Part shown: positions 2,843-20,334 of the stretch, piece after piece | How the letters are laid out: the number at the start of each line of letters is the position of its first letter | How positions within the stretch are numbered: position 1 is the first letter of the stretch | DNA from: Candidatus Pelagibacter sp. | Lineage (GTDB): Bacteria; Pseudomonadota; Alphaproteobacteria; Pelagibacterales; Pelagibacteraceae | Direction of reading: 5' to 3' | Length of the DNA stretch: 32,000 bases | NCBI GenBank assembly: GCA_002689925.1 | Contig: NZIO01000031.1 | Location: 2,982-34,981 of the forward strand | The notes under the pieces: model-generated | The model's input: the letters and a program-made list of their open reading frames with translations, nothing else | What the model was told of the DNA's origin: nothing | Database searches by the model: none | Made by a program: the position numbers and the translations under genes

Positions 2843-3148
2843 ATGAAAAAAAATACAGATCACTTTAACGTATTAAGAAAAATTCAAAATAGCCCTGGCT
2901 CTTCTCAAAGAGAATTAGCAGAAGACCTAGGTTTTAGCCTTGGTAAACTTAATTATTGTCTAAAAGCTTTAAAAAACAAAGGTTTGGTTAAAATAGATAA
3001 TTTTACAAAAAGTGATAAAAAAATTAATTATATTTACAACTTAACACCAAAAGGGATTGCTCAAAAAACTAAGCTAACTATCGAATTTATGAAAATAAAA
3101 ATGAACGAATATGATGAGCTGCAATCAGAATTAAAGGGAAAAAAGTAA
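2843..3148 (+). CDS. MarR-family winged-helix transcriptional regulator, EPS-associated subfamily
   Basis: 101 aa. The stretch LRKIQNSPGSSQRELAEDLGFSLGKLNYCLKALKNKGLVKIDNFTKSDKKINYIYNLTPKGIAQKTKLTIEFMKIKMNEYDEL closely follows the consensus I recall for small EPS-locus MarR regulators (SQRelA..LG.SlGk.NYclkAL..KGlvK..nF..S..K..Y.Y.LTPkGi). Confidence 0.85.
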   Translation: MKKNTDHFNVLRKIQNSPGSSQRELAEDLGFSLGKLNYCLKALKNKGLVKIDNFTKSDKKINYIYNLTPKGIAQKTKLTIEFMKIKMNEYDELQSELKGKK

Positions 3149-3149
3149 A

Positions 3150-3650
3150 ATGTGGATAGTAGCTAAAATAAAATTAAAAGAAATCTACAATTTTAAAAAA
3201 GAAATGAAAAAAAAACTAGGAAACGACATAGAGTTTTATTATCCAACCATGTTATTTAATAGTCAAAATAAAAATAAATCAAGAATTTTAAAAAAAATGG
3301 TTTTAGGTTCTTATATATTTTGCAAACACCAAAGTCTTGAAAAAAATGAATTATTAAATCAGTTAAAATTCACAGTCGGGTTAAATTATTTTTTATTAGG
3401 ATATAAATATCATCAAAAACAAATATTAAATTTTATAAAATATTGTAAAGAAAATGAAGATCTTAATGGAAATTTGAATCAGAGTTTTTTTTCAAATTTA
3501 TTAAAAACTTCTGCAAAGTTTATGTCAGGACCATTATCTGGTTTAATTTTTGAAGTTGTTAATAAACAAAAAAATAGATTATCAGTTTTAGTTAATAGTA
3601 AAAAAATAGTTGTAAATAAAAAATCAGGCTACTTATATTTACCTGTTTAA
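3150..3650 (+). CDS. NusG/RfaH-like specialised transcription elongation/antitermination factor (NGN + KOW)
   Basis: The ATG lies 1 nt after the MarR stop. By-eye alignment to RfaH gives an NGN domain: MWIV (WYxx), FYYPTM (xxPM), LGSYIFCK (FPNYLFV), VGLNYFL (GVSHFV). The C-terminal SGPLSGLIFEVV...RLSVLV is KOW-like. Confidence 0.65.
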   Translation: MWIVAKIKLKEIYNFKKEMKKKLGNDIEFYYPTMLFNSQNKNKSRILKKMVLGSYIFCKHQSLEKNELLNQLKFTVGLNYFLLGYKYHQKQILNFIKYCKENEDLNGNLNQSFFSNLLKTSAKFMSGPLSGLIFEVVNKQKNRLSVLVNSKKIVVNKKSGYLYLPV

Positions 3651-3732: not shown

Positions 3733-4608
3733 GTGGGTACAAACACTAAAATTATAATAGGAACAGCAAATTTTGCAACTGAATATGGTATTTTGAAAAA
3801 AAAACCAATCAGTTTGAAAAATATTTCAAAAATATTTACTTTTTGTAAAAATTCAAAAATTAAATTTATTGATACAGCAAAAGCATATGGTAATTGTGAA
3901 GAAAAAATAGGAAAACTAAACTTAAAAAATTTTAAAGTCATTACTAAATTACAAAACTGTGAAAAAAAAAAAATTGATCACAAACAATGGGTAAGAAATC
4001 AAATTTTTAATTCTTTAAAATTATTAAACATAAATTCACTTTATGGAGTTTTGCTTCATAAACCTTTAGAGCTACTAAAACCAGGTGGAAAAGAAATTTA
4101 TTCTGCTTTAAAGAAACTTAAATTAAATGGTTATATTAAAAAAATTGGATTTTCAATTAATTCACCAAATGATCTAGATTTATTATTTAAAAAATTCAAA
4201 CCAGATATAGTTCAATCTCCTTTGAATATATTTGATAGAAGAATTGTAGAATCTGGTTGGTTAAGTCGTTTATCAAGCAAAAATATAGAAGTGCATGCAA
4301 GATCTATCTTTTTACAAGGCCTTCTTTTAAAAGAAAGAAAAAAAATTCCATCAAAATTTGCAGTTTATAATAAATTTTTTATTAATTGGCACAATTGGCT
4401 ATATAAAAATAATCAAAAACCACTTGAGGCTTGTTTAAACTTTATCTTTTCTCAAAAAAAAATAAATCAAATTGTAATTGGAATTGATAACTTGGAACAA
4501 TTAAAAATTATTTTAAAACATTCATATTCTAAAAAAGATTTACCACCTAAAAATTTATCTTCTAAATCATCTAAATTAATCAGCCCATCTGAATGGAAAA
4601 ATCTTTAA
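3733..4608 (+). CDS. Aldo/keto reductase family oxidoreductase (GTG start)
   Basis: 291 aa. N-terminal IIGTANFATEYG and IDTAKAYGNCEEKIG match the AKR signatures (lGt..fG, iDTA..YG.sE..iG). This is the first biosynthetic gene after the 82-bp leader. Confidence 0.7.
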   Translation: MGTNTKIIIGTANFATEYGILKKKPISLKNISKIFTFCKNSKIKFIDTAKAYGNCEEKIGKLNLKNFKVITKLQNCEKKKIDHKQWVRNQIFNSLKLLNINSLYGVLLHKPLELLKPGGKEIYSALKKLKLNGYIKKIGFSINSPNDLDLLFKKFKPDIVQSPLNIFDRRIVESGWLSRLSSKNIEVHARSIFLQGLLLKERKKIPSKFAVYNKFFINWHNWLYKNNQKPLEACLNFIFSQKKINQIVIGIDNLEQLKIILKHSYSKKDLPPKNLSSKSSKLISPSEWKNL

Positions 4609-5339
4609 ACATAACAGCATTAGTTCAAGCAAGAATGGGTTCTTCAAGACTTTATGGCAAAGTAATGAAGAAAGTTTGTGGAAAAAGTTTAATTGAATTA
4701 TTATTAAAACGATTATCCAAATCAAAATTAATAAAAAAAATAATTGTTATAACCCCAAAAAGTAATGAAAATGATATCCTTGCAAAAAAAGTTAAGTCTT
4801 TAGGTTATGACATTTTCAGAGGCAAAGAGAAAGATGTTTTAGATAGATTCTATCAAGCAATAAAGAAAGACAAACCAGAAATAGTTATAAGAATAACAGG
4901 AGATTGTCCTTTAATAGATTATAGGATAGTAGATAAGATGATTAAACTTTTTAAATCTAAAAATTATGATTATTTATCAAATAATGACCCACCCACATAT
5001 CCAGACGGACTAGACGTGGAAATGTTTAATTTTAAATCATTAGATTACGCCTGGAAATATGCTACTAAAAAATATGACAGAGAGCATGTGACTCCGTTCA
5101 TTAAAAAAACTAAAAAATTTAAGTGTAAAAATATAAAGCACTCTAAAGATTATAGCGACGAAAGAATTACTCTTGATGAACAAGAAGATTTTAAATTGAT
5201 AAAAAATATTTTTCAATATTTCTATCCAAAAATTTATTTTAATTGGTTAGAAATTATTAATCTTAAAAAAAAACGACCTTTATGGTTTAAAGTCAATCAA
5301 AACATTGAAAGAAACGAAGGATCAAAAAAATTAAATTAA
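4593..5339 (+). CDS. SpsF-type cytidylyltransferase-fold protein (CTP_transf_3-like)
   Basis: 248 aa. ALVQARMGSSRLYGKVMKKVCGKSLIELLLKRL and ITGDCPLID are typical of SpsF/FlmC-like proteins. It overlaps the upstream stop by 16 nt. Confidence 0.7.
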   Translation: MEKSLNITALVQARMGSSRLYGKVMKKVCGKSLIELLLKRLSKSKLIKKIIVITPKSNENDILAKKVKSLGYDIFRGKEKDVLDRFYQAIKKDKPEIVIRITGDCPLIDYRIVDKMIKLFKSKNYDYLSNNDPPTYPDGLDVEMFNFKSLDYAWKYATKKYDREHVTPFIKKTKKFKCKNIKHSKDYSDERITLDEQEDFKLIKNIFQYFYPKIYFNWLEIINLKKKRPLWFKVNQNIERNEGSKKLN

Positions 5340-5349
5340 ATTTTACAAA

Positions 5350-6672
5350 ATGAAAAAAAAGAATTTACTAAAAAAAGGACTAAAATTATATAAAAGAGCA
5401 AAAGAAATAATTCCTGGTGGAAACATGTTACTTTCTAAAAGACCAGAGCTTTTTTTGCCAGGTGGTTGGCCTCCATATTTTAAAAAAGCACAGGGATGTT
5501 TCGTTTGGGATATAGATAACAATAAATATATTGACATGAGTTTAATGGGAGTTGGAACTAACATATTAGGTTATTCTAATAAAATTGTAGACAAATCTGT
5601 GCAAAATGTAATTAAAACAGGTAACTTAAGCTCCCTTAATTGTGTAGAAGAAGTTCAGCTAGCTGAGCAGCTAATTAAAATACATCCTTGGGCAAAAATG
5701 GTGAAGTTTGCAAGATCTGGAGGAGAAGCTAATTCAATTGCAATAAGAATAGCAAGGGCTGCAAGCGGCAGAGATAAAGTTGCTTTTTGTGGATATCATG
5801 GTTGGCATGATTGGTATTTGGCAACTAATTTAGAAAAAAAAGGTAATCTGAATAGTCATCTTTTGCCTAGTTTAAAAATTAGGGGTGTTCCTCAAAATTT
5901 AAGAAATACAATATTCCCGTTTATGTACAATGATTTTAAACAATTGAAAAATATAGTGGACAGAGAAAAAATTGGAGTAATTTGCATGGAAGTTACTAGA
6001 AATGAATTACCAAAAAATAATTTTTTACAAAAAGTTAGAGATCTAGCTTCTAAAAAAGGTATTGTTCTTATTTTTGATGAATGCACCTCTGGATTTAGAA
6101 AAAATTTTGGAGGTATTCATAAGTATTTTAAAGTAAACCCAGACCTTGCTTTGTTTGGAAAGGCTTTAGGAAATGGATATGCAATTACATCAATTATTGG
6201 AAAAAAAGAAGTAATGGAGTCTGCTCAAGATAGTTTTATTAGTAGTACTTTTTGGACTGAAAGAGTGGGGCCAACAGCTGCATTGGCTACTCTAAGAACA
6301 ATGAAACAAACTAAATCATGGGAAAAAATAGATTCTAATGGAAAGTTTATTATTAAAGAATGGTCAAGACTTGCAAAAAAATATAATTTAGATATACAAA
6401 TCCAAGGTCTTCCTGCTTTGTGTAGTTTTTCAATTAAAAGCAAATATTCTAGGCAATATAAAACATTGATTTCACAAGAAATGTTAAAAAAGGGCTTTTT
6501 AGCTGGAACAGCAATTTATTCAACAGTTTCTCATACTAAAGAAATTTTAAATAAGTATTTTTATGAATTAGAAAGAATATTTAAGCTAATTCAAAGCTGT
6601 GAAGATGGAAGAAATATTTTTGATATATTAAATTACCCCACAGCACACTCAACATTTGAAAGATTAAATTAA
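5350..6672 (+). CDS. Class-III PLP aminotransferase, glutamate-1-semialdehyde aminomutase-like
   Basis: 440 aa. IPGGNMLLSKRP..., ARSGGEANSIAIRIARA, IFDECTSGFR and DLALFGKALGNGYA (PLP lysine) match the HemL-like layout. The glycan-locus context argues against a housekeeping HemL. Confidence 0.75.
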   Translation: MKKKNLLKKGLKLYKRAKEIIPGGNMLLSKRPELFLPGGWPPYFKKAQGCFVWDIDNNKYIDMSLMGVGTNILGYSNKIVDKSVQNVIKTGNLSSLNCVEEVQLAEQLIKIHPWAKMVKFARSGGEANSIAIRIARAASGRDKVAFCGYHGWHDWYLATNLEKKGNLNSHLLPSLKIRGVPQNLRNTIFPFMYNDFKQLKNIVDREKIGVICMEVTRNELPKNNFLQKVRDLASKKGIVLIFDECTSGFRKNFGGIHKYFKVNPDLALFGKALGNGYAITSIIGKKEVMESAQDSFISSTFWTERVGPTAALATLRTMKQTKSWEKIDSNGKFIIKEWSRLAKKYNLDIQIQGLPALCSFSIKSKYSRQYKTLISQEMLKKGFLAGTAIYSTVSHTKEILNKYFYELERIFKLIQSCEDGRNIFDILNYPTAHSTFERLN

Positions 6673-6677
6673 AAATT

Positions 6678-7700
6678 ATGAAAAAAAATAAGTTCAAATT
6701 ACCTTTTTTTATTGCAGAAATTTCAGCAAATCATTGTGGAAATTTTAATTTAGCAAAAAAATTAATTAAATGTGCAAAAGATAATGGTGCTGATGCTGTA
6801 AAATTGCAAACTTATACTGCAGATACAATGACTATTAAATCTGATAAAAAATATTTTAAGATTAAAGATGGTTTATGGAAAGGTTATCAGCTTTGGGATT
6901 TATACAACAAAGCCCATACTCCACTGGTATGGCACTCAAAACTTTTTAAATATGCAAAATCTATTGGAATCAAAATCTTTAGCACTCCATTTGATGAAAC
7001 AGCTGTAGATTTTTTAGAGAAGTTAAATTGTCCAATTTATAAGATTGCTTCATTTGAAATGACAGACATACCTTTAATAGCAAAAATTGCTTCAACAAAA
7101 AAACCTTTAATTATTTCTACTGGGATGGCAACTTTAGATGAAATTGAATTAACATTTAACACTGCAAAAAAATATGGCTCTAAGGATATTACTCTTTTAT
7201 ATTGTGTTAGTAATTATCCATCAAAAAATTCAGATTTTAATTTAAATAATATAAAAATTTTAAAAGATAAATTTAAATGTAGAGTTGGTTTTTCAGATCA
7301 TTCAAAAAATAATAAAATTGCATTAGCTGCAATTGCATCTGGAGCAGAAGTAATTGAAAAGCATATAGCTTTAGGAAATCAAAAAAAAGGACTTGATATT
7401 AACTTTTCTTTAAAAGGAAAAGAAATAGGAGTTTTTAGACAAATTATTGATGAAGCTTATAACCTATTAGGTAAAAAAAGATTCTACAGAAACAAATCTG
7501 AGGATAAAAGCAAAGTTTTTAGGAGATCTATATTTGCAATTAAAGATATAAGAAAGGGTGAAAAATTTACCAAAAACAATATAAAACGAATTAGACCAGG
7601 TTATGGACTGCCTCCACTTTATTATAAAAGATTGTTAAATAAAAAATCTTTAATTAATATAAAGAAAGGAACACCCTTAAAATTTAATAATTTCAAATAG
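6678..7700 (+). CDS. pseI: Pseudaminic acid synthase-like NeuB-family nonulosonic acid synthase
   Basis: 340 aa. FIAEISANHCGNFNLAKKLIKCAKDNGADAVKLQTYTADTMT...GLW...LY..AHTP..WH...YKIASFE...ISTGMAT...GFSDHS...VIEKH, plus a C-terminal SAF-like segment, tracks my recollection of Campylobacter/Helicobacter PseI closely. Confidence 0.8.
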   Translation: MKKNKFKLPFFIAEISANHCGNFNLAKKLIKCAKDNGADAVKLQTYTADTMTIKSDKKYFKIKDGLWKGYQLWDLYNKAHTPLVWHSKLFKYAKSIGIKIFSTPFDETAVDFLEKLNCPIYKIASFEMTDIPLIAKIASTKKPLIISTGMATLDEIELTFNTAKKYGSKDITLLYCVSNYPSKNSDFNLNNIKILKDKFKCRVGFSDHSKNNKIALAAIASGAEVIEKHIALGNQKKGLDINFSLKGKEIGVFRQIIDEAYNLLGKKRFYRNKSEDKSKVFRRSIFAIKDIRKGEKFTKNNIKRIRPGYGLPPLYYKRLLNKKSLINIKKGTPLKFNNFK

Positions 7701-7708
7701 GATAAAAA

Positions 7709-8722
7709 ATGTTTAATAAAAAAAATATATTAGTAACTGGAGGAACAGGATCGTTTGGGTCTTTTTTAGTTCAATATTTAGCTGAAAACTATCAACCTAA
7801 TAAAATTATTATATATAGCAGGGATGAACTAAAACAGTACGAATTACAAAATAAGGAATTTGTTAAAAAAAATAAAAAGATATTTCGTTTTTTTATAGGT
7901 GATATAAGAGATAAAGACAGATTAAATTTTGCATTTAAAAATAATATTGATTATGTTTTTCATGCTGCGGCCTTGAAACAAGTTCCTGCAGCTGAATATA
8001 ATCCTTTTGAAGCTATTAAAACTAATATCATAGGGTCACAAAATATTATAGACGCTGCTATAGCTAATAATGTTAAAAAAACTATTGCCCTGAGCACAGA
8101 TAAAGCTTCATCCCCAATTAATTTGTATGGTGCTACAAAACTTGTTTCTGATAAACTCTTTGTTGCAGCTAATAATTTTAAAAATAATGATTCTATTTTT
8201 TCTGTAGTTAGATATGGAAATGTTATGGGAAGCAGAGGTTCAGTTATTCCACATTTTTTATCTAAGAAAGATTCAAATCAACTAGAAATTACTGATACTA
8301 GAATGACTCGTTTTAATATTACTCTTAAAGAAGGAGTGGAATTTGTAATTAAATGTTTAAGTAAAAGTTTAGGGGGGGAAGTTTTTGTTCCTAAAATACC
8401 ATCTTATAAAATAACTGATATTGCAAAAGCAATTGCTCCCAAAGCTAAATTAAAAATTATTGGAATTAGACCAGGTGAGAAAATTCATGAAGAAATGATA
8501 TCATCTTCAGAAGGAATGAATACTTTTGAATTTAAAGATTATTTTATTATTTTTCCACAATCACAAGATATATCTTGGGGAATGAAAGAATTTAATAAAA
8601 TCCATAATGGAGAAAAATTTCAAAAAAAAGAATATGGTTTTAGCTATCAAAGCCAAAATAATAAAGATTTTTTAAGCTTAGATCAGATTAAAAATCTCAT
8701 TAAAAAAGAAAGTTACAAATAA
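7709..8722 (+). CDS. pseB: UDP-N-acetylglucosamine 4,6-dehydratase (inverting), PseB/FlaA1 type
   Basis: 337 aa. ILVTGGTGSFG, IIIYSRDELKQ, FFIGDIRD, HAAALKQVPAAEYNPFEAIKTNIIGSQN, LSTDKASSPINLYGATKL, VVRYGNVMGSRGSVIP, MTRFNITL and GIRPGEKIHEEM are near-identical in pattern to H. pylori PseB. Confidence 0.9.
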   Translation: MFNKKNILVTGGTGSFGSFLVQYLAENYQPNKIIIYSRDELKQYELQNKEFVKKNKKIFRFFIGDIRDKDRLNFAFKNNIDYVFHAAALKQVPAAEYNPFEAIKTNIIGSQNIIDAAIANNVKKTIALSTDKASSPINLYGATKLVSDKLFVAANNFKNNDSIFSVVRYGNVMGSRGSVIPHFLSKKDSNQLEITDTRMTRFNITLKEGVEFVIKCLSKSLGGEVFVPKIPSYKITDIAKAIAPKAKLKIIGIRPGEKIHEEMISSSEGMNTFEFKDYFIIFPQSQDISWGMKEFNKIHNGEKFQKKEYGFSYQSQNNKDFLSLDQIKNLIKKESYK

Positions 8723-8737
8723 TAAATTAACATTTAT

Positions 8738-10030
8738 ATGAAAAAAATAGTTTATGTTGCTTTATCAGCAGACATTTTACATGAAGGACATATAAATGTT
8801 CTTAAAAAAGCATCAAAATTTGGAGATGTAGTAGTAGGACTTCTTACCGACGAAGCTATAGCAACATATAAAAAGTTTCCTCATCTAAACTACAAACAAA
8901 GAGAAATTGTTTTAAAGAATATTAAATTTGTTAAAAGAGTAATACCTCAAAGAACACATGATTATTCAGAAAATTTAAATATACTTAAGCCTCACTTTGT
9001 AGTACATGGAGATGATTGGAAAAAAGGTGTTCAATCTTTAGTAAGAAAAAGAGTCTTAAGTACTTTAAAAAAATGGAAAGGTAAGTTAATTGAAATAAAG
9101 TATACAAAAAATATTTCTTCGACACTAATAAGAGATAAAATTAAATCATTAGGCACAACACCTGAAGTAAGAAAGTCGAAATTAAAAAGATTAATAGCAG
9201 CAAAAAAAATTGTTAGATTTCTTGAGTCACACAATTCGCTTACAGGATTAATTATTGAGAAACTTAATATAGTCAGTAAAAATCAAATATTAGAATTTGA
9301 TGGTATGTGGTCATCAAGCCTAACCGACTCAATATCAAGAGGTAAGCCTGATAATCAATCAGTTGATTATTCTACAAGAATATTGGGGCTTAATGAGACA
9401 TTAGACGCAACAACTAAACCTATAATTTTTGATGCAGATAATGGCGGAAGAAACGAACATATACGTCACCTTGTTAAATCCTTAGAGAGAGCGGGAGTTT
9501 CAGCAATGGTTATAGAGGACAAGGTTGGTTTAAAGCAAAATTCATTATTTAAGAATCAAAAAAACATTAAACAAGATAGTATAAAAGAATTTTGTAAAAA
9601 AATTCAGATTGCTAAAGACTCAAGAATTTCTAATGATTTTATGATTGTAGCTAGAATAGAAAGTTTTATTTTAGGAAAGTCTCTTAAAGATGCCCTTAAT
9701 AGGGCAGAAGCTTACTCAAAGGCAGGAGCTGATGCAATTTTAATTCACAGCAAAGAAAAGACTCCAAAACAGATTTTTAGTTTTTCAAAAAAATTTATAA
9801 AAAGCAAATACTATAAACCTATGATTGCAGTACCTTCCAAATATTCAAAAACTAATGAAATTTCATTGATTAAGAATAATTTTAAAGTTGTAATTTATGC
9901 AAATCATTTAATGAGAGCATCACATTTTGCAATGTACAAAACAGCTAGCCAAATTTTAAAAAACGGCAGAAGTTTTGAATCTGAAAAAAATATTACAAAC
10001 CTCGAATCAATCCTGCGTCTTATAAAATAA
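8738..10030 (+). CDS. pepM: Bifunctional cytidylyltransferase (HxGH type) / phosphoenolpyruvate mutase
   Basis: 430 aa. The N-terminal ~135 aa carry HEGH (nt 8780-8791) and ISSTLIR, which are TagD/CCT/ECT-type cytidylyltransferase signatures. The C-terminal ~280 aa are isocitrate-lyase/PEP-mutase-like and contain EDKVGLKQNS (nt 9515-9544), an exact match to the EDK-X5-NS PEP-mutase discriminator motif. Confidence 0.85.
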   Translation: MKKIVYVALSADILHEGHINVLKKASKFGDVVVGLLTDEAIATYKKFPHLNYKQREIVLKNIKFVKRVIPQRTHDYSENLNILKPHFVVHGDDWKKGVQSLVRKRVLSTLKKWKGKLIEIKYTKNISSTLIRDKIKSLGTTPEVRKSKLKRLIAAKKIVRFLESHNSLTGLIIEKLNIVSKNQILEFDGMWSSSLTDSISRGKPDNQSVDYSTRILGLNETLDATTKPIIFDADNGGRNEHIRHLVKSLERAGVSAMVIEDKVGLKQNSLFKNQKNIKQDSIKEFCKKIQIAKDSRISNDFMIVARIESFILGKSLKDALNRAEAYSKAGADAILIHSKEKTPKQIFSFSKKFIKSKYYKPMIAVPSKYSKTNEISLIKNNFKVVIYANHLMRASHFAMYKTASQILKNGRSFESEKNITNLESILRLIK

Positions 10031-10040
10031 TAAACATTTT

Positions 10041-10838
10041 ATGATTAGTAAAAAAGATATTTTAAAATATAATAATGATGGGTATTTAACAATTAAAAAT
10101 TTTTTTAATAAAAAAGAAATATTAAACGCTAAAAATGAAATATTAAAAAAAGTAAATTCTAAAAATAAATTAATATCTACTTATTATGAGGATATTAAAA
10201 AAAAAAAAGAAATTCGAAGAATTGAAAAAATATCAGATTATTCAAAATATTCAAAAAAACTTGTAATTTCAGAAAAATTAAAAAAAATATTAAAAATTCT
10301 TTTAAAGAAAAAATTTTTTTTGTTCAAAGATAAGGTCAACTTTAAACAACCTGGTGGAGCAGGTTTTCTTCCTCATATTGATGGACATTTTTATTGGAAA
10401 AATAAAAAAGATGGTAAACAGCAAGAAGGGTGGAGTAAATATGGAGACAGCTTTATTAATATTGTGATCCCAATGGATTCAACTACAAAAAAGAATGGTT
10501 ATCTTTTTTTATCTAAAAAAAAATATACTTTTAAAAAGTATGGAAAAAGATGGAAAAATATTGCTGATAATTTAGTTTCAGGCACACCTAACTTAAAAGA
10601 TGATGATATTAAAGATTTCAAGTTTAATGGAATGGTTTTAAATATAGGAGATATACTTATTTTTGATTGGAAATGTTGTCATTTTTCAAAAAAAAATTTA
10701 AGTAAAAAATCCAGAATGATTTTTTATCTTACATATGTAAATGCTTGTAAAAAAAATTCTAATTATTTAGTTCGTAAAAAATATTATAGTGAAAAAAAAA
10801 ACAGTCTTAATCCTTTAAAAAGAAAATCATTACAATAG
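10041..10838 (+). CDS. PhyH-family Fe(II)/2-oxoglutarate-dependent dioxygenase
   Basis: 265 aa. Start MISKKDILKYNNDGYLTIKNFF; KQPGGAGFLPHIDGHF (HxD, nt 10374-10382); distal His in CCHFS (nt 10680-10682); SRMIFYLTY as a candidate 2OG-binding Arg. Very lysine-rich. Confidence 0.6.
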   Translation: MISKKDILKYNNDGYLTIKNFFNKKEILNAKNEILKKVNSKNKLISTYYEDIKKKKEIRRIEKISDYSKYSKKLVISEKLKKILKILLKKKFFLFKDKVNFKQPGGAGFLPHIDGHFYWKNKKDGKQQEGWSKYGDSFINIVIPMDSTTKKNGYLFLSKKKYTFKKYGKRWKNIADNLVSGTPNLKDDDIKDFKFNGMVLNIGDILIFDWKCCHFSKKNLSKKSRMIFYLTYVNACKKNSNYLVRKKYYSEKKNSLNPLKRKSLQ

Positions 10839-10840
10839 AA

Positions 10841-11941
10841 ATGATAGCTGCTAAAAATTTTTCAAATACTCTGTTAAAAGAAAATATTAACTTTATAACT
10901 GGTGTACCTGATAGTGTTTTAAAAAATATGATTTTTTCATTTGATAAAAATAAGAAATTTAAGCATATGCCTGCAAATAATGAAGGAACTGCAGTTGCTT
11001 TAGCAATAGGCCATAACTTATCTACAAAGAAAATGGCAGCTGTTTACTTTCAAAACTCTGGACTAGGAAATGCCATAAATCCACTTATTTCTATTGCTCA
11101 TCAAAAAGTATACTCAATTCCAATGGTTTTGATAATAGGTTGGAGAGGATCACCAAATAAACCTGTTGATGAACCTCAACATTCAGTAAAAGGAAAAATT
11201 ACAAAGCAAATTCTTAAACTTTTAAATATTAAGTATTGTATTATAAGAAAAAAGAAGGATTTGAATAAACTTAAAGATTTAATCAAGTTATCTAAAAAAA
11301 ATAAAAAACCAGTAGCATGTTTAGTCGAAAAAGGAACACTTGAAAATCAAAGCAACAAAAACAAAAAAAAATCTAAAAAAAAATATTTACTTAGACATGA
11401 AATAATTTTAGATTTATTAAACAAAATTAAACCTAGCACAAAAATAATCTCAACTACTGGTTATACCTCAAGAGAATTGTATCAATTAAGAAATACTTAT
11501 AATATTTCGAAAGGATCAGATTTTTATATGGTTGGTGGCATGGGTCATTCAGCGATGGTATCTGTTGGTGTAGCACTTAGTACAAGAAATGAAATAATAT
11601 GTTTAGATGGAGATGGATCAATTTTAATGCACCTAGGTTCTTTGAGTTTAATAAGAGGGTCAAATAATAAAAATTTTAAACATATTTTATTAAATAATAG
11701 TTCTCACGAATCAGTTGGGGGACAAAAAACACCAGCTAACAAAATTAATTTTAAATTATTAACTTCTAGCCTAGGGTATAAAAATTATTTTTTTGCCTCT
11801 AATAAGAAAAATTATAATACAAATATTAATAAGTTTTTAAAATCAAAAGGGCCAAGCTTCTTTGAAATTAGAATAGAAGAAGGAAGTATAAAAAATTTAT
11901 TAAGGCCAAATAATTTAAAGAAAATTAAGAATAAATTTTAA
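10841..11941 (+). CDS. ppd: Phosphonopyruvate decarboxylase (ThDP-dependent)
   Basis: 366 aa. INFITGVPDSVLK, NEGTAVALAIGH and the ThDP motif LDGDGSILMHLGS...ILLNNSSHESVGGQ are present. The size, and the position two genes downstream of the PEP mutase gene (the dioxygenase ORF lies between them), fit Ppd. Sulfopyruvate decarboxylase is the nearest alternative family. Confidence 0.8.
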   Translation: MIAAKNFSNTLLKENINFITGVPDSVLKNMIFSFDKNKKFKHMPANNEGTAVALAIGHNLSTKKMAAVYFQNSGLGNAINPLISIAHQKVYSIPMVLIIGWRGSPNKPVDEPQHSVKGKITKQILKLLNIKYCIIRKKKDLNKLKDLIKLSKKNKKPVACLVEKGTLENQSNKNKKKSKKKYLLRHEIILDLLNKIKPSTKIISTTGYTSRELYQLRNTYNISKGSDFYMVGGMGHSAMVSVGVALSTRNEIICLDGDGSILMHLGSLSLIRGSNNKNFKHILLNNSSHESVGGQKTPANKINFKLLTSSLGYKNYFFASNKKNYNTNINKFLKSKGPSFFEIRIEEGSIKNLLRPNNLKKIKNKF

Positions 11942-11950
11942 CTATTTTTA

Positions 11951-13069
11951 ATGATTAGCTATTTAAAATCTACCAATTTAAGTTCTTTAAAAGAATTGTT
12001 AAAAAAAAATAACAATAAAAGAATATTAGTTATTTCAGGAAAAAAATCTTATTATAAGTCTGGAGCAAATAAAATATTTTTTAATTTGTTTAAAAAATTT
12101 AAACATCTAAACTTTTATTTTAAACAATCTTATTTTCCAGAAATTAGTGAATTAATTAAAATAATAAGAAGAATTAAAATATTTCAACCAGATATAATTA
12201 TATCAATTGGAGGAGGTTCAGTTATAGATTATGCAAAAATTGCAAATACCCTATATGATTGTAGAAATATAAAGAATCTAATTATCAAATCAAAGTACAA
12301 TATTAAAAATAAGTATTGTTCATTAATAGCAATACCTACAACCGCAGGCTCAGGAGCAGAAGTAACATCTAATGCAGTAATCTATATTGATAAAAAAAAA
12401 TATTCCATTGAGAATGAAGCATTGATTCCAAATTATTTTTATTTTATCCCTGAATTAATTAAGAATTCTTCAAAAAAAATTAAAGCTTCTTCTGGATTTG
12501 ATGCGATGGCTCAATCACTTGAATCTATTATTTCATTAAAATCAAATTCTACAAGTATAAAATATGCATCAAAATCACTTGAATATTCTTTAAATAATTA
12601 TTTAAATTTTATAAAAAAACCAAATATAAAAAATACTTATAATATGTGTATTTCTGCAAATTTATCTGGCAAAGCTATAAGCATTTCTAAAACAACAGCA
12701 CCTCATGCTGTATCTTATCCTTTTACAGCACATTTTGGAGTAAGTCATGGACATGCTGTATCTCTTACTCTTAATGAGTTTTTAAAATTTAACTTTTTTA
12801 ATATGGGTAATATTAACGTGAATTTTAATTTAAAAAAAAGGTATGAATTAATTTTTAAAATTTTCAAAGTAAAAAATATTTTTGAATTTGATAAAAAATT
12901 AGAAAATTTAAAAAAAGAAGCTAAACTAGAGCAAAATTTTACTAAATTGGGCATTAACATAGCCGAAAACTATAGTAAAATTTTATCTGGAGTTAATACA
13001 CTTAGACTTAAAAACAATCCTATTAATCTAGACAGATCAATAATTAAGAAAATTCTTTTAGAAAAATAA
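11951..13069 (+). CDS. Iron-containing alcohol dehydrogenase, phosphonate-associated (phosphonoacetaldehyde reductase candidate)
   Basis: 372 aa. GGGSVIDYAKI, PTTAGSGAEVT and HAVSYPFTAHFGVSHGHAVS are Fe-ADH signatures. It lies immediately after ppd. Confidence 0.7.
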   Translation: MISYLKSTNLSSLKELLKKNNNKRILVISGKKSYYKSGANKIFFNLFKKFKHLNFYFKQSYFPEISELIKIIRRIKIFQPDIIISIGGGSVIDYAKIANTLYDCRNIKNLIIKSKYNIKNKYCSLIAIPTTAGSGAEVTSNAVIYIDKKKYSIENEALIPNYFYFIPELIKNSSKKIKASSGFDAMAQSLESIISLKSNSTSIKYASKSLEYSLNNYLNFIKKPNIKNTYNMCISANLSGKAISISKTTAPHAVSYPFTAHFGVSHGHAVSLTLNEFLKFNFFNMGNINVNFNLKKRYELIFKIFKVKNIFEFDKKLENLKKEAKLEQNFTKLGINIAENYSKILSGVNTLRLKNNPINLDRSIIKKILLEK

Positions 13070-13074
13070 AACAG

Positions 13075-14442
13075 ATGCCTAAAGATACTATAATATATAT
13101 TCCAATTGAGGCTCCAAAAAGAGAACTTACTTCAAAAACAATGCTTGCTACAAGATTAGCTAAAGCTGGCTATACTACTATATTATTTGAGCACAGTTTT
13201 TTTGATAGACATAAATGGAAAATGCCGGGATTATATTTAGGTAAAAATTTTTTTAGATACGAGAAAAGCAAAACAAATAAATCCTGGTATAATGAAATGA
13301 AAAAAAGCAAAATTGATATTTGGTATTTAGATGAAGAGGCAGGAATTTTCCCTGGAAAAGACCCTAAATCATGGAAAATTTTTTTAGATGAAAGAATTGA
13401 TATAAATAATTTATCATCAAAAGATAAGATTCTTGTTTGGGGAAGGTGGCAGAAAGAACATTGGATAGAAAAAACAAATAAACATGAAGAAAAAAACATT
13501 ATTATAACTGGAACACCACATTATGATATGCTTCAAACAAAATATCATAAATATTTTAGAGAATTTGATTTAAATACTACAGGTAATCTTGAAAATTATA
13601 TTTTAATAAATACTAGATTTTCTCTCGTAAATAGTCATCCAAGACTAGGAAGAAAGGCTGTAGAGAAATTTTATTTAGATGCTGAAGAATCTTTTAAAAA
13701 GTTTAATAAAGAAAAATTTTCTTCTCTCATATTTAAAGAAGAAACTTTTTTAATAAAAAATTTTATTGAATTAGCTAAATACTTATCTGAAAATTTTACT
13801 GATAAAAATATTGTGCTTAGAGCTCACCCAGATGAAGGTTCAGAAAGATATAAAAATGAATTAAGTGCGCATAAAAATATAAAAGTAATTTCTGAGGGAG
13901 GGATTGATAGCTGGATAAGACTTTCTGATTGTGTAATTCACAATGGTTGTTCAACAGCAATTCAGGCTGATTTTGCAAAAAAAAAAGTAATTAGTTATTT
14001 ACCTTCAGATGGAGGACTAAATTTTTATGTAACTACACCAGGTTTACCCAACATGATTGGATTTTTAGCTAAAACCAATGAAGATGTTAAGGAAGCAATA
14101 AAAAATCCAGTTTACAAACAATCAAAACAAAAATGGGAAAGCACTTTTTCTGAAGAAAATACTATTGAAAAAATTGCTTCAATGGTTGAAGAATTTTATC
14201 CAGAAGACAAAACTTCTTCAATGAATATATTTAAGAATTTAAAGATAAAATATTTCATGGTTAATATAAAAGAGTTTTTAAAGGATATCTTAAGACCAAT
14301 TTTTAAAAAACCAAAAGTAATTTTTCCATATGAGGAGTTTTATAATATTATGAAAATTTCATCTACGACATCTAATATTTATGACACTAAAATTTCAGTT
14401 AATAAATTAGCAAGAGGAGCTATTGTAATATCGCCAAAATAA
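13075..14442 (+). CDS. Uncharacterised surface-carbohydrate biosynthesis protein, GT-B / Capsule_synth (KpsS/TagF)-like
   Basis: 455 aa. It has a Rossmann-like N-terminus (IIYIPIEAPKRELTSKTMLATRLAKAGYTTILF). The C-terminal half, IVLRAHPDEG...IKVISEGGIDSWIRLSDCVIHNGCSTAIQADFAKKKVISY, resembles the HP...ST...A motif arrangement of capsule/teichoic CMP/CDP-donor transferases. No specific family is recognised. Confidence 0.35.
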   Translation: MPKDTIIYIPIEAPKRELTSKTMLATRLAKAGYTTILFEHSFFDRHKWKMPGLYLGKNFFRYEKSKTNKSWYNEMKKSKIDIWYLDEEAGIFPGKDPKSWKIFLDERIDINNLSSKDKILVWGRWQKEHWIEKTNKHEEKNIIITGTPHYDMLQTKYHKYFREFDLNTTGNLENYILINTRFSLVNSHPRLGRKAVEKFYLDAEESFKKFNKEKFSSLIFKEETFLIKNFIELAKYLSENFTDKNIVLRAHPDEGSERYKNELSAHKNIKVISEGGIDSWIRLSDCVIHNGCSTAIQADFAKKKVISYLPSDGGLNFYVTTPGLPNMIGFLAKTNEDVKEAIKNPVYKQSKQKWESTFSEENTIEKIASMVEEFYPEDKTSSMNIFKNLKIKYFMVNIKEFLKDILRPIFKKPKVIFPYEEFYNIMKISSTTSNIYDTKISVNKLARGAIVISPK

Positions 14443-14456
14443 TTAATTTTTGAAAA

Positions 14457-14972
14457 ATGAATAAAAATAAAGGAATACTTTTTTGGGTTACTGGACTTTC
14501 AGGATCTGGAAAAACAGAAATTTCAAAAAAAATAAAAAATAAGATATCAAAATTATATGGTCCAACTATAATTTTGCATGGCGATCAACTCAGAAAAACG
14601 TTAAATCTTACAAGATACTCAAAAAATGATAGATATTTAAATTCTAAAAAGTTTGCATTACTTTGCAAAAGTTTAACGGATCAAAAAATTAATGTTATTA
14701 TTGCGCTTATAGGTCTTTTTCATAAAACCCATTCCTGGAATAGGAAAAATATTGATAACTATATAGAAATTTATATACAAAGTAATGTAAAAAAAATAAT
14801 CAGTTATAATAAAAAGAAAACATATAAAAATAATAAAAAAAATATTGTTGGTTTAGATATAAAAGCAGAATTTCCAAAAAAACCACATATTAAAATTGTT
14901 AATAATTTTACAAAAGATTTAAATTATTTGGCACAGGTATTAATTAAAAAAATTAATTTTTTGATAAGTTAA
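14457..14972 (+). CDS. P-loop kinase with adenylylsulfate (APS) kinase fold, divergent CysC-like
   Basis: 171 aa. GILFWVTGLSGSGKTEIS matches the CysC P-loop context. ILHGDQLRKTL aligns with LLDGDNVRHGL, and SKNDRYLNSKKF with SDADRKENIRRV. The FISP and RDPKGLY motifs are degenerate (ALIGLF, SYNKKKTY). Confidence 0.5.
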   Translation: MNKNKGILFWVTGLSGSGKTEISKKIKNKISKLYGPTIILHGDQLRKTLNLTRYSKNDRYLNSKKFALLCKSLTDQKINVIIALIGLFHKTHSWNRKNIDNYIEIYIQSNVKKIISYNKKKTYKNNKKNIVGLDIKAEFPKKPHIKIVNNFTKDLNYLAQVLIKKINFLIS

Positions 14973-16106: not shown

Positions 16107-17168
16107 ATGGCATCAGTTATAAATATTCAAAATAAAAAAATTGGACCTCATGAACCAGTTTTTATTATTGCTGAAATTGGTGTAAATCATAATGGTGATA
16201 TAAATGTTGCAAAAAAATTAATTGAAAAGGCCAAGGAATCAGGAGCAGACTGTGTCAAGTTTCAAACTTTTAAAGCAGAAAATTTAGTAACAAAAAAGGC
16301 CGTTAAAGCAAAGTATCAAGTCTTAAACGATAAACAATCAAAAGATAAAAATCAGTTTGAAATGTTAAAAAAACTTGAACTTTCAAGAGAGTCATTTGAA
16401 AAAATTTTAAAACATTGTTCTGACAATAAAATTATCTTTATTTCTACCCCATATAATTATGAGGATGTTGACTTTTTACTAAGTTATGATGTTCCTGCTT
16501 TTAAACTTTCTTCTATGCATGCTCAAGAACCTAGCTTTGCTAATTATGTAGCAAAAAAAGAAAAACCAATAATTTTATCAACAGGAATGACATCTCTTGA
16601 TCAAATTAAAGAAACAGTTAAAGCGATTAACTTAACTGGAAATAAAGATTTGGCTCTTCTTCAATGTACAACTTCATACCCATCAAAAATTTCAGAATCA
16701 AACTTGAAAACAATAAAGACCTTAGAAAAAACTTTTAATACTATAGTTGGTTTTTCAGATCATACTTTAGGTTATATTTCTGCAGTTACCTCCATAGGAT
16801 TAGGAGCTAAGATTATTGAAAAACATTTAACACTTGATAAAAGCATGAAAGGACCAGATCATGCAGCTTCTTGTGACCCTAATGAATTTTCTATTTTTGT
16901 TAGAATGATTAGAGATGCAGAAAAGACTTTAGGTTCTGAAATTAAAGAGCCAACTTTACATGAAAAAGAAAATATGGAATTTATGCTGAGAAGTATTTGT
17001 GCAAAAAAAAATATTGTTAAAAATACTATTATAAATGAAGAAATGTTAACTTTTAAAAGACCTGGAGATGGAATTCCTCCAAGACAAATAAATTCTTTAA
17101 TTGGAAAAAAAGTTGTTAGAAATATTTTAGCAGATGAATTAATAAATTGGGAAGATTTAGAAAAATAG
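16107..17168 (+). CDS. neuB: N-acetylneuraminate/legionaminate synthase (NeuB/LegI type) with C-terminal SAF domain
   Basis: 353 aa. FIIAEIGVNHNGDINVAKKLIEKAKESGADCVKFQTF, FKLSSM, LSTGMTS, LLQCTSSYPS-like (LQCTTSYPS), GFSDHT, IIEKHLTLDKSMKGPDH and a SAF-like tail. It is a distinct paralogue of the PseI-like gene at 6678. Confidence 0.85.
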   Translation: MASVINIQNKKIGPHEPVFIIAEIGVNHNGDINVAKKLIEKAKESGADCVKFQTFKAENLVTKKAVKAKYQVLNDKQSKDKNQFEMLKKLELSRESFEKILKHCSDNKIIFISTPYNYEDVDFLLSYDVPAFKLSSMHAQEPSFANYVAKKEKPIILSTGMTSLDQIKETVKAINLTGNKDLALLQCTTSYPSKISESNLKTIKTLEKTFNTIVGFSDHTLGYISAVTSIGLGAKIIEKHLTLDKSMKGPDHAASCDPNEFSIFVRMIRDAEKTLGSEIKEPTLHEKENMEFMLRSICAKKNIVKNTIINEEMLTFKRPGDGIPPRQINSLIGKKVVRNILADELINWEDLEK

Positions 17169-17170
17169 AA

Positions 17171-17782
17171 ATGAAAAAAAAAATTTTACTAATTGGGTCT
17201 GGTGGACATGCAAGAGTAGTAATAGATGCTTTAGAGCGTTTAGATTATGATTTAAAGGGAATTATAGATTTGAATTATAAAAAAAGTAAAGAGCTTATTT
17301 TGGGTTACAAAGTTATAGGAAATTATGAAAAGTTAAAAAAATTTAAACCAAAAGATTATTTTGTTTTTATTGCCATAGGAGATAATCAAATTAGAAAAAA
17401 ATATTTTAACAAAGTAAAAAAACGAGGCTTTAAAATTCCCAATATTGTACATCCAAGCTCAAATGTTTCTAAACACGTTTCTTTGGGAAAAGGTATTTTT
17501 ATTAATATCAAAGCAATAATAAATGCTTCAGCAAGAATAAAAGATAATACTATAATAAATACTGCCTCAATTATAGAACACGAAACAGTAATTGGAAAAA
17601 ATTGCCATATTTGTCCTGGAGCTAAAATAGCAGGACGTGTTTTAATTGGTGATGATACTTTTATTGGATTGGGAACAAACATTATACAAAATGTAAAAAT
17701 TGGAAAAAATACAAAAGTTGGGGCAGGTTTAACTGTTAAAAAAAATATTAAAAAAAATACTACTTTTTCAATTAATAAATAA
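17171..17782 (+). CDS. NeuD/PglD-family sugar N/O-acetyltransferase (left-handed beta-helix)
   Basis: MKKKILLIGSGGHARVVIDALE at the N-terminus plus hexapeptide repeats (IGKNCHICPGAKIAGRVLIGDDTFIGLGTNIIQNVKIGKNTKVGAG). I prefer the ATG at 17171, 2 nt after the neuB stop, over the track's 17147 start, which would overlap neuB by 22 nt. Confidence 0.8.
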   Translation: MKKKILLIGSGGHARVVIDALERLDYDLKGIIDLNYKKSKELILGYKVIGNYEKLKKFKPKDYFVFIAIGDNQIRKKYFNKVKKRGFKIPNIVHPSSNVSKHVSLGKGIFINIKAIINASARIKDNTIINTASIIEHETVIGKNCHICPGAKIAGRVLIGDDTFIGLGTNIIQNVKIGKNTKVGAGLTVKKNIKKNTTFSINK

Positions 17783-18643: not shown

Positions 18644-19658
18644 AATTGCTTTAATTGTTGGTATTACAGGTCAAGATGGGTCTTATTTAGCAGATTTTTT
18701 ATTGTCAAAAGGTTATCAAGTACATGGGTTACAAAGAAGGGCAAGTACATCTAATACTCAAAATATTGAACATCTAAATTTAGATGTAAAAACTCAAAAA
18801 AATGTTCATTTACATTATGGTGATTTGACAGATTCATCTAGTTTAAACAAAATAGTTCACTTTTGTAAACCAGATGAAATATACAATATTGGAGCCCAAT
18901 CTCATGTACACACATCTTTTCAAATGCCATTGTTTACTTCTAATGTAAATGCACTTGGAACCATAAGACTTTTAGATGTTATTAAAAATATAAATCCAGA
19001 CACAAAATTTTATCAAGCTTCGACAAGTGAACTTTTTGGTGATGCATTAGAATCTCCACAGACGGAAAAAACTCCTTTCAATCCTAGATCACCTTATGCA
19101 ATATCCAAGCTAAGTTCTTTTCATTTTGTTAAAAATTATAGAGAGGCTTTTAAAATTTTTGCTTGTAATGGAATACTTTTTAATCACGAGTCGCCTCGAA
19201 GAGGTCAGACTTTTGTTTCTAGAAAAATTACTAGAGCAGTAGCTGAAATTTATAAAGGAAATAAAGAAAAGATTTATCTTGGTAATCTTAATGCAAAACG
19301 AGATTGGGGTTATGCAAAAGAATACGTTGAAGCAATGTGGTTAATGCTTCAAAAAAAGGAGCCTGATGATTTTATTATAGCTACAGGAAAAAACTATAGC
19401 GTTAGAGATTTTGTGGAAAAAGCTTTTTCTTACATAAATATTGATTTAGTTTGGGAAGGAAAAGATGATCAAGAAAAAGGAATAAATAAAAAGAATAATA
19501 AAGTTCTAGTAGAAATTGATCCTTATTATTATAGACCTACAGAAGTAAATAGCTTAGTAGGAGATTTTTCAAAAGCACAAAAAACTTTAGGTTGGAAACC
19601 TAAAGTACAATTTAATGAATTAGTTGAAATTATGATGAGGGCAGAGCTTGAAAAATAA
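18633..19658 (+). CDS. gmd: GDP-mannose 4,6-dehydratase
   Basis: 341 aa. [70 protein letters not shown] and [10 protein letters not shown] are classic Gmd signatures. It overlaps the upstream stop by 11 nt. Confidence 0.9.
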
Positions 19659-20334
19659 AAAAATTATAGCACTAATAATTGCTAAAAAAAATAGCAAAAG
19701 ATTATCAAAAAAAAATTTTAGAAAAATTAAAAATATTTCTATTACAGAAAGAACTATAAAAATTGCTAAGACTTGCAAGTATTTGGATAAGATAATGTTA
19801 TCATCAGATTCTAAAGAATTAATACAAATTGCTAATAAACATAAAATTTCAGCTCCTTTTATAAGACCTGCATATTTATGTAAAAGTAAAGTTAAACCCT
19901 GGCCAGTAATAAAACATTCAATAAATTATTTGAGTCAGCTGAAAGAAAAATATGATTTCATGCTTTTGTTACAACCAACATCAGCACTAAGAAAAAAAAA
20001 ACATATTGATAAAGCAATACAAATCATGAAAAAAAACAAATATAAAAAAAACGTTTATTCTATGGTGACAAAAGATAATTGTAAAAAAATAAAATTTGCA
20101 AAAATTTATGCTGAAGTGGGCAATAAATTTTCTCAAAGTATAAATATTTTAAATCAAAAACAGATAAAAACAAAAGCCGTTGTTAATGGAAATATTTATT
20201 TATTTAATATTAAAAAAGCAATTTTAAATAGAAGTCATTTTTTAAATAATTCAATTGGATTTTTAATGAATAAAAAAGATTCAATTGACATAGATACTCT
20301 TCAAGACCTTAAAGAAGCAAGGAAATATATTTAA
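19648..20334 (+). CDS. Acylneuraminate (nonulosonate) cytidylyltransferase, NeuA/LegF-like (TTG start)
   Basis: 228 aa. [40 protein letters not shown] and [10 protein letters not shown] match the CMP-NulO synthetase layout. The first in-frame ATG would delete the nucleotide-binding N-terminus, so a TTG (19648) or nearby ATT/ATA start is required. Confidence 0.75.

Follow-up and report, generated by a model that had tools for sequence, protein, structure and literature searches.

A Fom1-like phosphonate cassette with an embedded PhyH-family dioxygenase in a surface-glycan operon of Candidatus Pelagibacter

We analysed a stretch of 32,000 nucleotides from Candidatus Pelagibacter sp. (contig NZIO01000031.1; the whole stretch is called the window here), in which four adjacent genes at positions 8738-13069 are likely to constitute a module of the Fom1/Fom2/FomC type that would make a cytidine monophosphate (CMP)-activated (di)hydroxyethylphosphonate for a surface glycan. 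The locus is genuine and of a known kind, and it is a modest variant of that kind, with an embedded dioxygenase, no methylphosphonate synthase (MPnS) and no usual TagF-like transferase. A preliminary description of the same DNA had presented the arrangement as noteworthy in itself; such arrangements are already established, both for the fusion proteins (PMC6697681) and for SAR11 clusters (PMC9381506, PMC8931226), and GenBank labels the fusion protein of Candidatus Pelagibacter sp. TMED64 as phosphoenolpyruvate mutase, with the dioxygenase annotated as hypothetical. The window's proteins are identical to the TMED64 entries, which bears out the supposition that the host is a pelagic oligotroph, and the same cassette was also found on Tara and other marine metagenome contigs.

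The interval 8738-13069 consists of four open reading frames (ORFs; 8738-10030, 10041-10838, 10841-11941 and 11951-13069) separated by 10, 2 and 9 nt; gene gaps in the cassette region are 2-15 nt, with all genes on the same strand. Three of the four, a fusion protein, a decarboxylase and an iron-dependent alcohol dehydrogenase (Fe-ADH), had been described before, and all the motifs quoted for them were found where they had been placed; the PhyH-family gene at 10041-10838 had been overlooked, so that the cassette comprises four genes and not three.

The first ORF (8738-10030) indeed encodes two domains, both of which were confirmed with Pfam: CTP_transf_like (PF01467; residues 12-133, 46 bits) and PEP_mutase (residues 149-407, 156 bits). 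The second of these corresponds to a phosphoenolpyruvate (PEP) phosphomutase (Ppm) domain spanning residues ~145-430 (9170-10030, plus strand). Against the PEP mutase model TIGR02320 the fusion protein scores 350.8 bits, above the curated cut-off of 319.55, compared to 132 bits for phosphonopyruvate hydrolase, 79.6 for methylisocitrate lyase and 42 for CPEP mutase; this places the domain with Ppm rather than with other enzymes of the isocitrate-lyase type, as had been proposed. It contains EDKVGLKQNS, an instance of the EDK-X5-NS motif (residues 260-269, nt 9515-9544), and aligns to the Ppm enzymes of Mytilus (1m1b) and Streptomyces (5unc) with E ~1e-44. In this alignment the magnesium and substrate ligands of 1m1b (D58, D85, D87, E114, K120, N122 and S123) are retained as D205, D232, D234, E260, K266, N268 and S269. 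The domain is a true Ppm, predicted to convert PEP to phosphonopyruvate.

The domain N-terminal to Ppm (residues 1-137; 8738-9148, plus strand) is a cytidylyltransferase (CyTase) of the HxGH type, with both an HxGH and an RTxGISTT-like nucleotide-binding motif present: HEGH at residues 15-18 (nt 8780-8791), and ISST at residues 126-129 within ISSTLIR (residues 126-132, nt 9113-9133). Residues 2-137 match the CyTase domain of Fom1 (PDB 5x3d) at 54% identity over 136 residues (170 bits, E 7.5e-49), whereas other cytidylyltransferases score far lower against the window domain (55 bits for the ethanolamine-phosphate enzyme ECT, 3elb; 45 bits for the glycerol-3-phosphate enzyme TagD, 1coz). In fosfomycin biosynthesis, the bifunctional CyTase-Ppm protein Fom1 produces CMP-2-hydroxyethylphosphonate (CMP-HEP) with its CyTase domain (PMC6697681). 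Among HEP cytidylyltransferases, it is the one that has been characterised. Based on this close homology, the window domain is predicted to convert cytidine triphosphate (CTP) and (di)hydroxyethylphosphonate to CMP-phosphonate and pyrophosphate; we infer HEP as its substrate from the homology together with the co-conserved reductase described below. Fusions of this kind are established: 23.6% of the Ppm proteins in RefSeq that bear EDKX5NS are fused to PF01467 (Rice et al. 2019, PMC6697681).

The third gene (10841-11941, plus strand) encodes a thiamine diphosphate (ThDP)-dependent enzyme that scores 384.8 bits against the phosphonopyruvate decarboxylase (Ppd) model TIGR03297 (cut-off 312.5). 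Sulfopyruvate decarboxylase (113.5 bits for the beta and 96 for the alpha subunit family) and acetolactate synthase (~50 bits or less), which had been considered as alternatives, lie far lower. The ThDP motif GDGS...NN is present at residues 257-286 (nt 11609-11713), as is LLNNSSHES. This protein is a true Ppd, and on these scores the predicted reaction is from phosphonopyruvate to phosphonoacetaldehyde and CO2. The fourth gene (11951-13069, plus strand) encodes the N- and C-terminal domains of an Fe-ADH (PF00465 and PF25137) and carries GGGSVIDYAKI, HAVSYP and HGHAVS. From its general family and its conserved position in the cassette, we predict that it is the phosphonoacetaldehyde reductase (the PhpC/FomC/Pdh role), forming 2-HEP.

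The conservation of position is evident from related loci, which are given here as L numbers and include 78 Ppm-anchored loci from a scan of one genome per species, about half of them Pelagibacteraceae single-cell genomes. In 49 of the 78, fusion, Ppd and Fe-ADH are collinear, and these collinear loci span Pelagibacteraceae, Bacteroidales, Ignavibacteria, Prochlorococcus, Planctomycetota and archaea; Ppd follows straight after the fusion in most related loci. This is in line with previous findings that pepM, aepY and phpC occur together in Pelagibacterales, beside glycan genes (Lockwood 2022, PMC9381506; Acker 2022, PMC8931226).

Taken together, these enzyme identities and the established pathway from PEP over phosphonopyruvate and phosphonoacetaldehyde to HEP (PMC8942020) suggest the following route. 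The Ppm domain would convert PEP to phosphonopyruvate, Ppd would decarboxylate this irreversibly to phosphonoacetaldehyde, and the Fe-ADH would reduce the latter to HEP. The embedded PhyH protein would then hydroxylate C1 of HEP to give 1,2-dihydroxyethylphosphonate (1,2-DHEP), the reaction described for DhpA and FzmG, after which the fused CyTase would join the phosphonate to CTP, yielding CMP-phosphonate. Finally, a CMP-releasing phosphotransferase would place the phosphonate ester on a glycan rich in nonulosonic acid (NulO), or on the glycan of a glycoprotein; we infer both this transfer and its acceptor from the gene context.

The step that sets this cassette apart is the hydroxylation. 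The PhyH-family protein (10041-10838, plus strand; 265 aa; PF05721, 54.7 bits) is predicted to be an Fe(II)/2-oxoglutarate (2OG) dioxygenase. Its Fe(II) triad HxD...H and 2OG-binding arginine are intact, with H112, D114, H214 and R225 invariant among 33 homologues, and its AlphaFold2 (AF2) model (pLDDT 93.9) has a fold of the PhyH clade. The top NCBIfam match, over nearly the full length, is the methylphosphonate hydroxylase PhnY* (NF052437, E 3.4e-17), with ectoine hydroxylase (25 bits) as the sole other match, and several homologues are labelled '2-aminoethylphosphonate dioxygenase' in their source databases. FzmG has been described as a homologue of PhnY*, and both DhpA and FzmG convert 2-HEP to 1,2-DHEP (PMC4303578). 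Based on family resemblance and gene position, we suggest that the window protein is probably a phosphonate C1 hydroxylase acting on HEP, and that it probably changes the product of the cassette from HEP to a hydroxylated derivative.

The same gene order, fusion, PhyH, Ppd and ADH, is found in two further loci (L161 and L163) at protein identities of 49-67%, with PhyH in the same position as in the window at ~50% identity. PhyH also lies beside the cassette in L006 (where it adjoins Ppd and the fusion), L016, L019, L021, L022 and L082, and in L007-L009 it is clustered with a TagF-like gene and ADH. In total a PhyH homologue is present in 7 of the 78 Ppm-anchored loci, in addition to further metagenome contigs. 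The PhyH-bearing loci are spread over a Ppm tree, a pattern suggestive of modular gain and loss. In the papers on marine clusters (Acker 2022, Lockwood 2022) we found no prior description of a PhyH gene embedded in a marine HEP cassette, and we likewise found none of the conserved order that ends in an adenosine-5'-phosphosulfate (APS) kinase, discussed below.

Several observations weigh against the pathway as drawn. The PhyH protein reaches only 62.8 bits on the PhnY* model, far under the cut-off of 500. Its homologues also occur away from Ppm: two contexts, one of which is L162, have no phosphonate genes within 8-10 kb and instead have a B12-radical-SAM neighbour, so that the substrate of PhyH could be something else. 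FzmG, moreover, also oxidises phosphonoacetaldehyde to phosphonoacetate (PMC4303578), making phosphonoacetate a minor alternative product. The ADH falls outside the phosphonate-ADH equivalog TIGR03405 (PsrA), with 127 bits against a cut-off of 423.7, and its role is for this reason taken from synteny; the earlier identification as an Fe-ADH at this position stands, with the correction that the protein is not a member of the phosphonate-specific family. Lastly, within the 32 kb of the window no recognised phosphonyl transferase was found, TagF-like, LicD-like or otherwise.

Part of this evidence would fit a different reading, in which the product is plain CMP-2-HEP and PhyH acts on something besides the phosphonate, such as a sugar, a NulO side chain or a protein residue belonging to the same surface structure. 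The glycan clusters in which PhyH homologues occur without Ppm, Ppd or ADH within 8-10 kb (L162 and L165 among them) speak for it, as do the poor score on PhnY* and the fold matches of the AF2 model, which are to generic small-molecule hydroxylases of the PhyH clade; a search of the PDB for a phosphonate-specific PhyH structure to anchor the substrate residues yielded generic hydroxylases only. On the other hand, PhyH lies 10 nt past Ppm and 2 nt ahead of Ppd, a position that L161 and L163 have kept at ~50% identity; it is next to the cassette in at least six more loci, and its sole specific family match is a phosphonate hydroxylase. We therefore regard plain CMP-2-HEP as unlikely, though it deserves to be kept in mind, and continue with PhyH as a probable HEP hydroxylase.

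Fom3, the enzyme that methylates CMP-HEP, belongs to the B12-binding radical-SAM class. A gene of ~500 codons for a B12-binding radical-SAM protein recurs in SAR11-like contigs (L162, 10818-12323; L108, L123, L116; and the contig of P0022), where it adjoins PhyH homologues, APS kinase genes and phosphonate cassettes. In view of its enzyme class, some marine cassettes may make C-methylated phosphonates. In the window, no Fom3-like B12-radical-SAM gene was found, nor any LicD-like or ATP-sulfurylase gene.

How the activated phosphonate might be transferred is best approached from the related loci, where a TagF-like gene (PF04464) near the cassette forms two clusters of 22 and 5 loci and is usually the next gene past ADH; the larger cluster takes in three PhyH-anchored metagenome loci. 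A TagF-like neighbour fits the requirement of a CMP-phosphonate as donor. No window ORF matches hidden Markov models (HMMs) built from these 22 and 5 neighbours, and tblastn probes gave no match either. The earlier proposal that a CMP-activated phosphonate other than 2-aminoethylphosphonate (AEP) is attached to the glycan of the operon is thus well supported as far as the activated phosphonate is concerned, whereas the enzyme attaching it is not identifiable in the window. Cluster c46 was guessed from its sequence to be LicD-like, which Pfam did not confirm.

The TagF slot is occupied in the window by a TIGR04396 protein (13075-14442, plus strand; 238 bits), a GT-B protein that we list as a remote TagB/TagF-like transferase with a CMP-linked donor. 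Its AF2 model (pLDDT 84) has fold matches that include TagF (3l7k), and hhalign relates it remotely to the TagF-like proteins past ADH elsewhere (probability 97.3%, E 2e-11), although it has no significant PF04464 match of its own. Invariant residues are E87-E88 and R249-P250-H251-P252, and the protein has a G-x-P-x-x-D motif as well; E87-E88 and H251-P252 correspond to the D/E-D/E-G and HP motifs known from bacterial sialyltransferases and from the TagB-like pseudaminic-/legionaminic-acid (Pse/Leg) transferases of Tannerella (PMC5420450). Despite its slot and remote kinship, we disfavour it as a dedicated phosphonyl transferase, as homologues lie directly past NulO genes in clusters that have no phosphonate genes. 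These homologues lead us to read it as probably a NulO transferase for pseudaminic or legionaminic acid, of which few have been characterised; that it handles CMP-phosphonate as a phosphonyl transferase seems doubtful, if conceivable. It resembles the T. forsythia Pse/Leg transferases in the D/E-D/E-G and HP motifs and in its length of ~445 aa, and the TagB/TagF CDP-glycerol glycerophosphotransferases in its GT-B fold and its G-x-P-x-x-D and R-P-H-P motifs, differing from the latter in having no significant PF04464 match.

In Bacteroidales (L041-L043, L048, L049, L054-L056, L079), the fusion, Ppd, ADH and TagF-like genes are followed by one for a ~1000-aa protein that combines a YidC-like membrane domain with a domain of the sulfatase/LtaS type, and this protein may be an extracytoplasmic phosphonate- or phospho-transferase.

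The next gene in the window (14457-14972, plus strand) encodes an APS-kinase-family protein (PRK05541, 131.4 bits against a cut-off of 127). Its closest homologues (~60% identity; L091, L095, L099) adjoin ATP sulfurylase (PF01747, 168.7 bits), some of them also a TauE exporter, and within 68 kinase loci an ATP sulfurylase gene lies within two genes of the kinase in 11, the closest homologues included. Judging by its family and relatives, the protein is most likely a genuine kinase forming 3'-phosphoadenosine-5'-phosphosulfate (PAPS) for glycan sulfation, with the PAPS going to the sulfotransferase-fold protein encoded at 20335-21438.

The kinase invites another explanation for the transfer step: it could 3'-phosphorylate the CMP-phosphonate in the manner of Cj1415, with the sulfotransferase-fold protein then transferring the phosphonyl group from this PAPS-like donor. 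There is precedent in Campylobacter, where Cj1415 helps to make cytidine diphosphate (CDP)-phosphoramidate 3'-phosphate and Cj1415-Cj1418 together make the 3'-phosphorylated cytidine donor (PMC11800397). In L161 and L163 the kinase lies directly past ADH with overlapping frames and is followed by a Sulfotransfer_3-like gene; of 70 metagenome loci anchored on the kinase, 23 contain phosphonate genes, which directly adjoin it in 14; and the window holds no conventional phosphonyl transferase. Set against this, the ATP sulfurylase and TauE genes beside the closest homologues are those of a normal PAPS module, for which reason we downgraded the kinase as a Cj1415-type enzyme. The kinase is, in addition, present in many loci that have no phosphonate genes, and the window sulfotransferase, tried as a relative of the one past the kinase in L163, has no detectable similarity to it. 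A phosphonyl-transferring role of this pair thus appears improbable, and PAPS formation for sulfation is retained.

Related SAR11 contigs (L091, L095, L096, L099, L119, L121) pair the kinase with ATP sulfurylase and in some cases with a TauE-like exporter; in the window, an APS-kinase-family gene is accompanied by one for Sulfotransfer_3 but by none for ATP sulfurylase. This suggests sulfated surface glycans in SAR11, a group not known to have assimilatory sulfate reduction. In L152, L154, L155 and L158 the kinase homologue stands beside a stand-alone LicC/PntC-like nucleotidyltransferase (246 aa) and an asparagine-synthase-like gene, with no Ppm fusion.

It is also conceivable that HEP is an intermediate only and that methylphosphonate or hydroxymethylphosphonate is made from it by an MPnS or a hydroxyethylphosphonate dioxygenase (HEPD) encoded elsewhere, as in other SAR11. 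HEP is the substrate of MPnS, and an MPnS homologue (383 bits to 6b9s) is found beside the same cassette in six loci (L016, L027, L030, L031, L035, L069). The window itself has no homologue of MPnS or HEPD (tblastn at E <= 0.01, with MPnS probes from related loci), and in ocean metagenomes phpC greatly outnumbers both mpnS and hepD (PMC9381506), which indicates that most cassettes end elsewhere; we consider such an end product for this cassette very unlikely. The 445-aa ORF at 21441-22778 was tried as an MPnS or HEPD and discarded, as it has no PDB match to 6b9s or 6b9r and no NCBIfam match, and the MPnS probes miss the window. For this ORF and the one at 27353-28120 (255 aa), neither Pfam nor NCBIfam nor the PDB sequences gave a match; a 446-aa gene product upstream of the cassette in L161 and L163 is similar neither to the 445-aa protein nor to either transferase family. 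In several Pelagibacteraceae loci (L020, L027, L030, L031, L078) the cassette, often with MPnS, sits between valS-ilvD-manC-like genes and a phoR-pstS-pstC cluster; with these phosphate-uptake genes as neighbours, phosphonate synthesis adjoins the phosphate-scavenging regulon.

The window has a G+C content of ~25%, and apart from a carbamoyltransferase gene (946-2643), the single gene on the minus strand, it contains one long plus-strand operon reaching from 2843 to at least 31442. The flanks of the cassette encode PseB, PseI, a LegC-like aminotransferase, a second NeuB, a PglD-like acetyltransferase and a GDP-sugar dehydratase, as well as three CMP-sugar synthetases, an ABC exporter and a GT1 glycosyltransferase, that is, the synthesis of NulO and other surface sugars. 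The cassette sits in a hypervariable surface-glycan island of the SAR11 cell. In NulO clusters that have no phosphonate genes the order is aldo-keto reductase, CMP-synthetase/aminotransferase, NeuB and transferase, and this order suggests insertion of the four phosphonate genes into a NulO module of that kind.

This context also bears on the class-III aminotransferase at 5350-6672, three genes upstream of the cassette, which might in principle make AEP in place of the usual class-V enzyme. It matches PbfA, a phosphonate-handling enzyme of the class-III fold, weakly (107 bits against a cut-off of 525); but the same type of aminotransferase is fused to CMP-nonulosonate synthetase and occurs in phosphonate-free clusters (L088, L090), pointing to a sugar pathway, the reductase consuming phosphonoacetaldehyde is conserved in the cassette, and the CyTase domain is of the HEP type (Fom1) and not of the AEP-type PntC family PF12804, so that AEP as the product can be given hardly any credence. 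The gene was accordingly rejected as an AEP transaminase and assigned to the NulO module, and the earlier remark that no class-V AEP transaminase lies nearby is upheld.

The operon contains three CTP_transf_3 genes (CMP-nonulosonate/3-deoxy-D-manno-octulosonate (KDO) synthetase-like; 4593-5339, 19648-20334 and 24599-25360) and two NeuB-family synthase genes (6678-7700, PseI-like, and 16107-17168), which implies two or three distinct CMP-activated acidic sugars. In the window (3733-8722) and in L088 and L090, the order aldo-keto reductase, CMP-sugar synthetase and class-III aminotransferase is kept, and in other contigs synthetase and aminotransferase are a single fused protein of ~675 aa; order and fusion point to an amino-modified NulO made by a pathway other than the textbook Pse route. 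At its start the operon has a winged-helix regulator (2843-3148) and a 166-aa protein without assigned function (3150-3650). The pair recurs in many related marine contigs (L109, L126, L152, L155, L157, L159), and the regulator alone in others, such as L091 and L095; conserved regulation of the glycan island is a possible role. The listed TTG start of the ORF at 17147-17782 makes it overlap the preceding NeuB gene by 22 nt; the same gene is called at 203 aa on the identical metagenome contig L001, which puts the start at ~17171, and the longer version is probably a start-codon artefact.

Phosphonates account for much of the dissolved organic phosphorus in the sea, and their degradation feeds the aerobic release of methane and ethylene. 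As phpC is so much commoner than mpnS and hepD, MPnS and HEPD would not explain what becomes of HEP in most marine producers. The window and its 78 relatives point to activation of HEP as the CMP ester by a Fom1-like domain, usually followed by TagF-like transfer, and on that view the default product would be HEP esterified to surface glycans. From the PhyH-bearing sub-type a hydroxylated variant is predicted. The known picture is thereby refined, and no new principle is involved. More tentatively, we speculate that the product of this cassette, with its embedded dioxygenase and with APS-kinase and sulfotransferase-like genes as recurrent neighbours, is 1,2-DHEP, possibly further sulfated, esterified to NulO-rich SAR11 glycans, which would be new among the surface phosphonates described from marine bacteria; if true, it would be a distinct and unrecognised component of marine high-molecular-weight phosphonate.

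Compared to known systems, the cassette is alike to Fom1-Fom2-FomC of fosfomycin biosynthesis in Streptomyces wedmorensis in its CyTase-Ppm fusion (54% N-terminal identity), its Ppd, its HEP-making Fe-ADH and the predicted CMP-HEP. It differs in that the window is without the Fom3 B12-radical-SAM methyltransferase, the Fom4 epoxidase and the FomD hydrolase, has an extra PhyH, and lies in a surface-glycan context in a streamlined marine alphaproteobacterium rather than in an antibiotic cluster; the CMP ester is a transient handle in the fosfomycin system, whereas here it is presumably the donor for transfer. With the Pnt systems for phosphonyl tailoring (PMC6697681) it shares a Ppm fused to a cytidylyltransferase and CMP-phosphonate for cell-surface decoration, but the characterised PntC is LicC-like (PF12804) and prefers AEP, whereas the window enzyme is of the PF01467/Fom1 type, with a reductase instead of an AEP transaminase. 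The predicted role of the PhyH protein is that of DhpA (dehydrophos), FzmG (fosfazinomycin) and PhnY*, all of them Fe/2OG enzymes whose target is the carbon adjoining phosphorus, which they hydroxylate; its likeness to DhpA and FzmG would be in the reaction, with free HEP, CMP-HEP and phosphonoacetaldehyde as candidate substrates, and the match to PhnY* is, as said, weak.

Further counterparts are the marine pepM-aepY(ppd)-phpC(pdh) clusters of SAR11, Prochlorococcus and Nitrosopumilus, with or without mpnS (Acker 2022, PMC8931226; Lockwood 2022, PMC9381506; reportedly also Metcalf 2012 and Born 2017). The usual cassette has a TagF-like gene next past ADH, whereas the window is without a PF04464 member, and it differs further in the PhyH gene inside the cassette and in that no MPnS or HEPD was found. 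Phosphonates of SAR11 and Prochlorococcus have been proposed to reside on surface glycoproteins (PMC8931226), and the window is like these clusters in its three core enzymes, its host group, its position among glycan genes in a genomic island, and its proposed role in a surface phosphonoglycan or glycoprotein.

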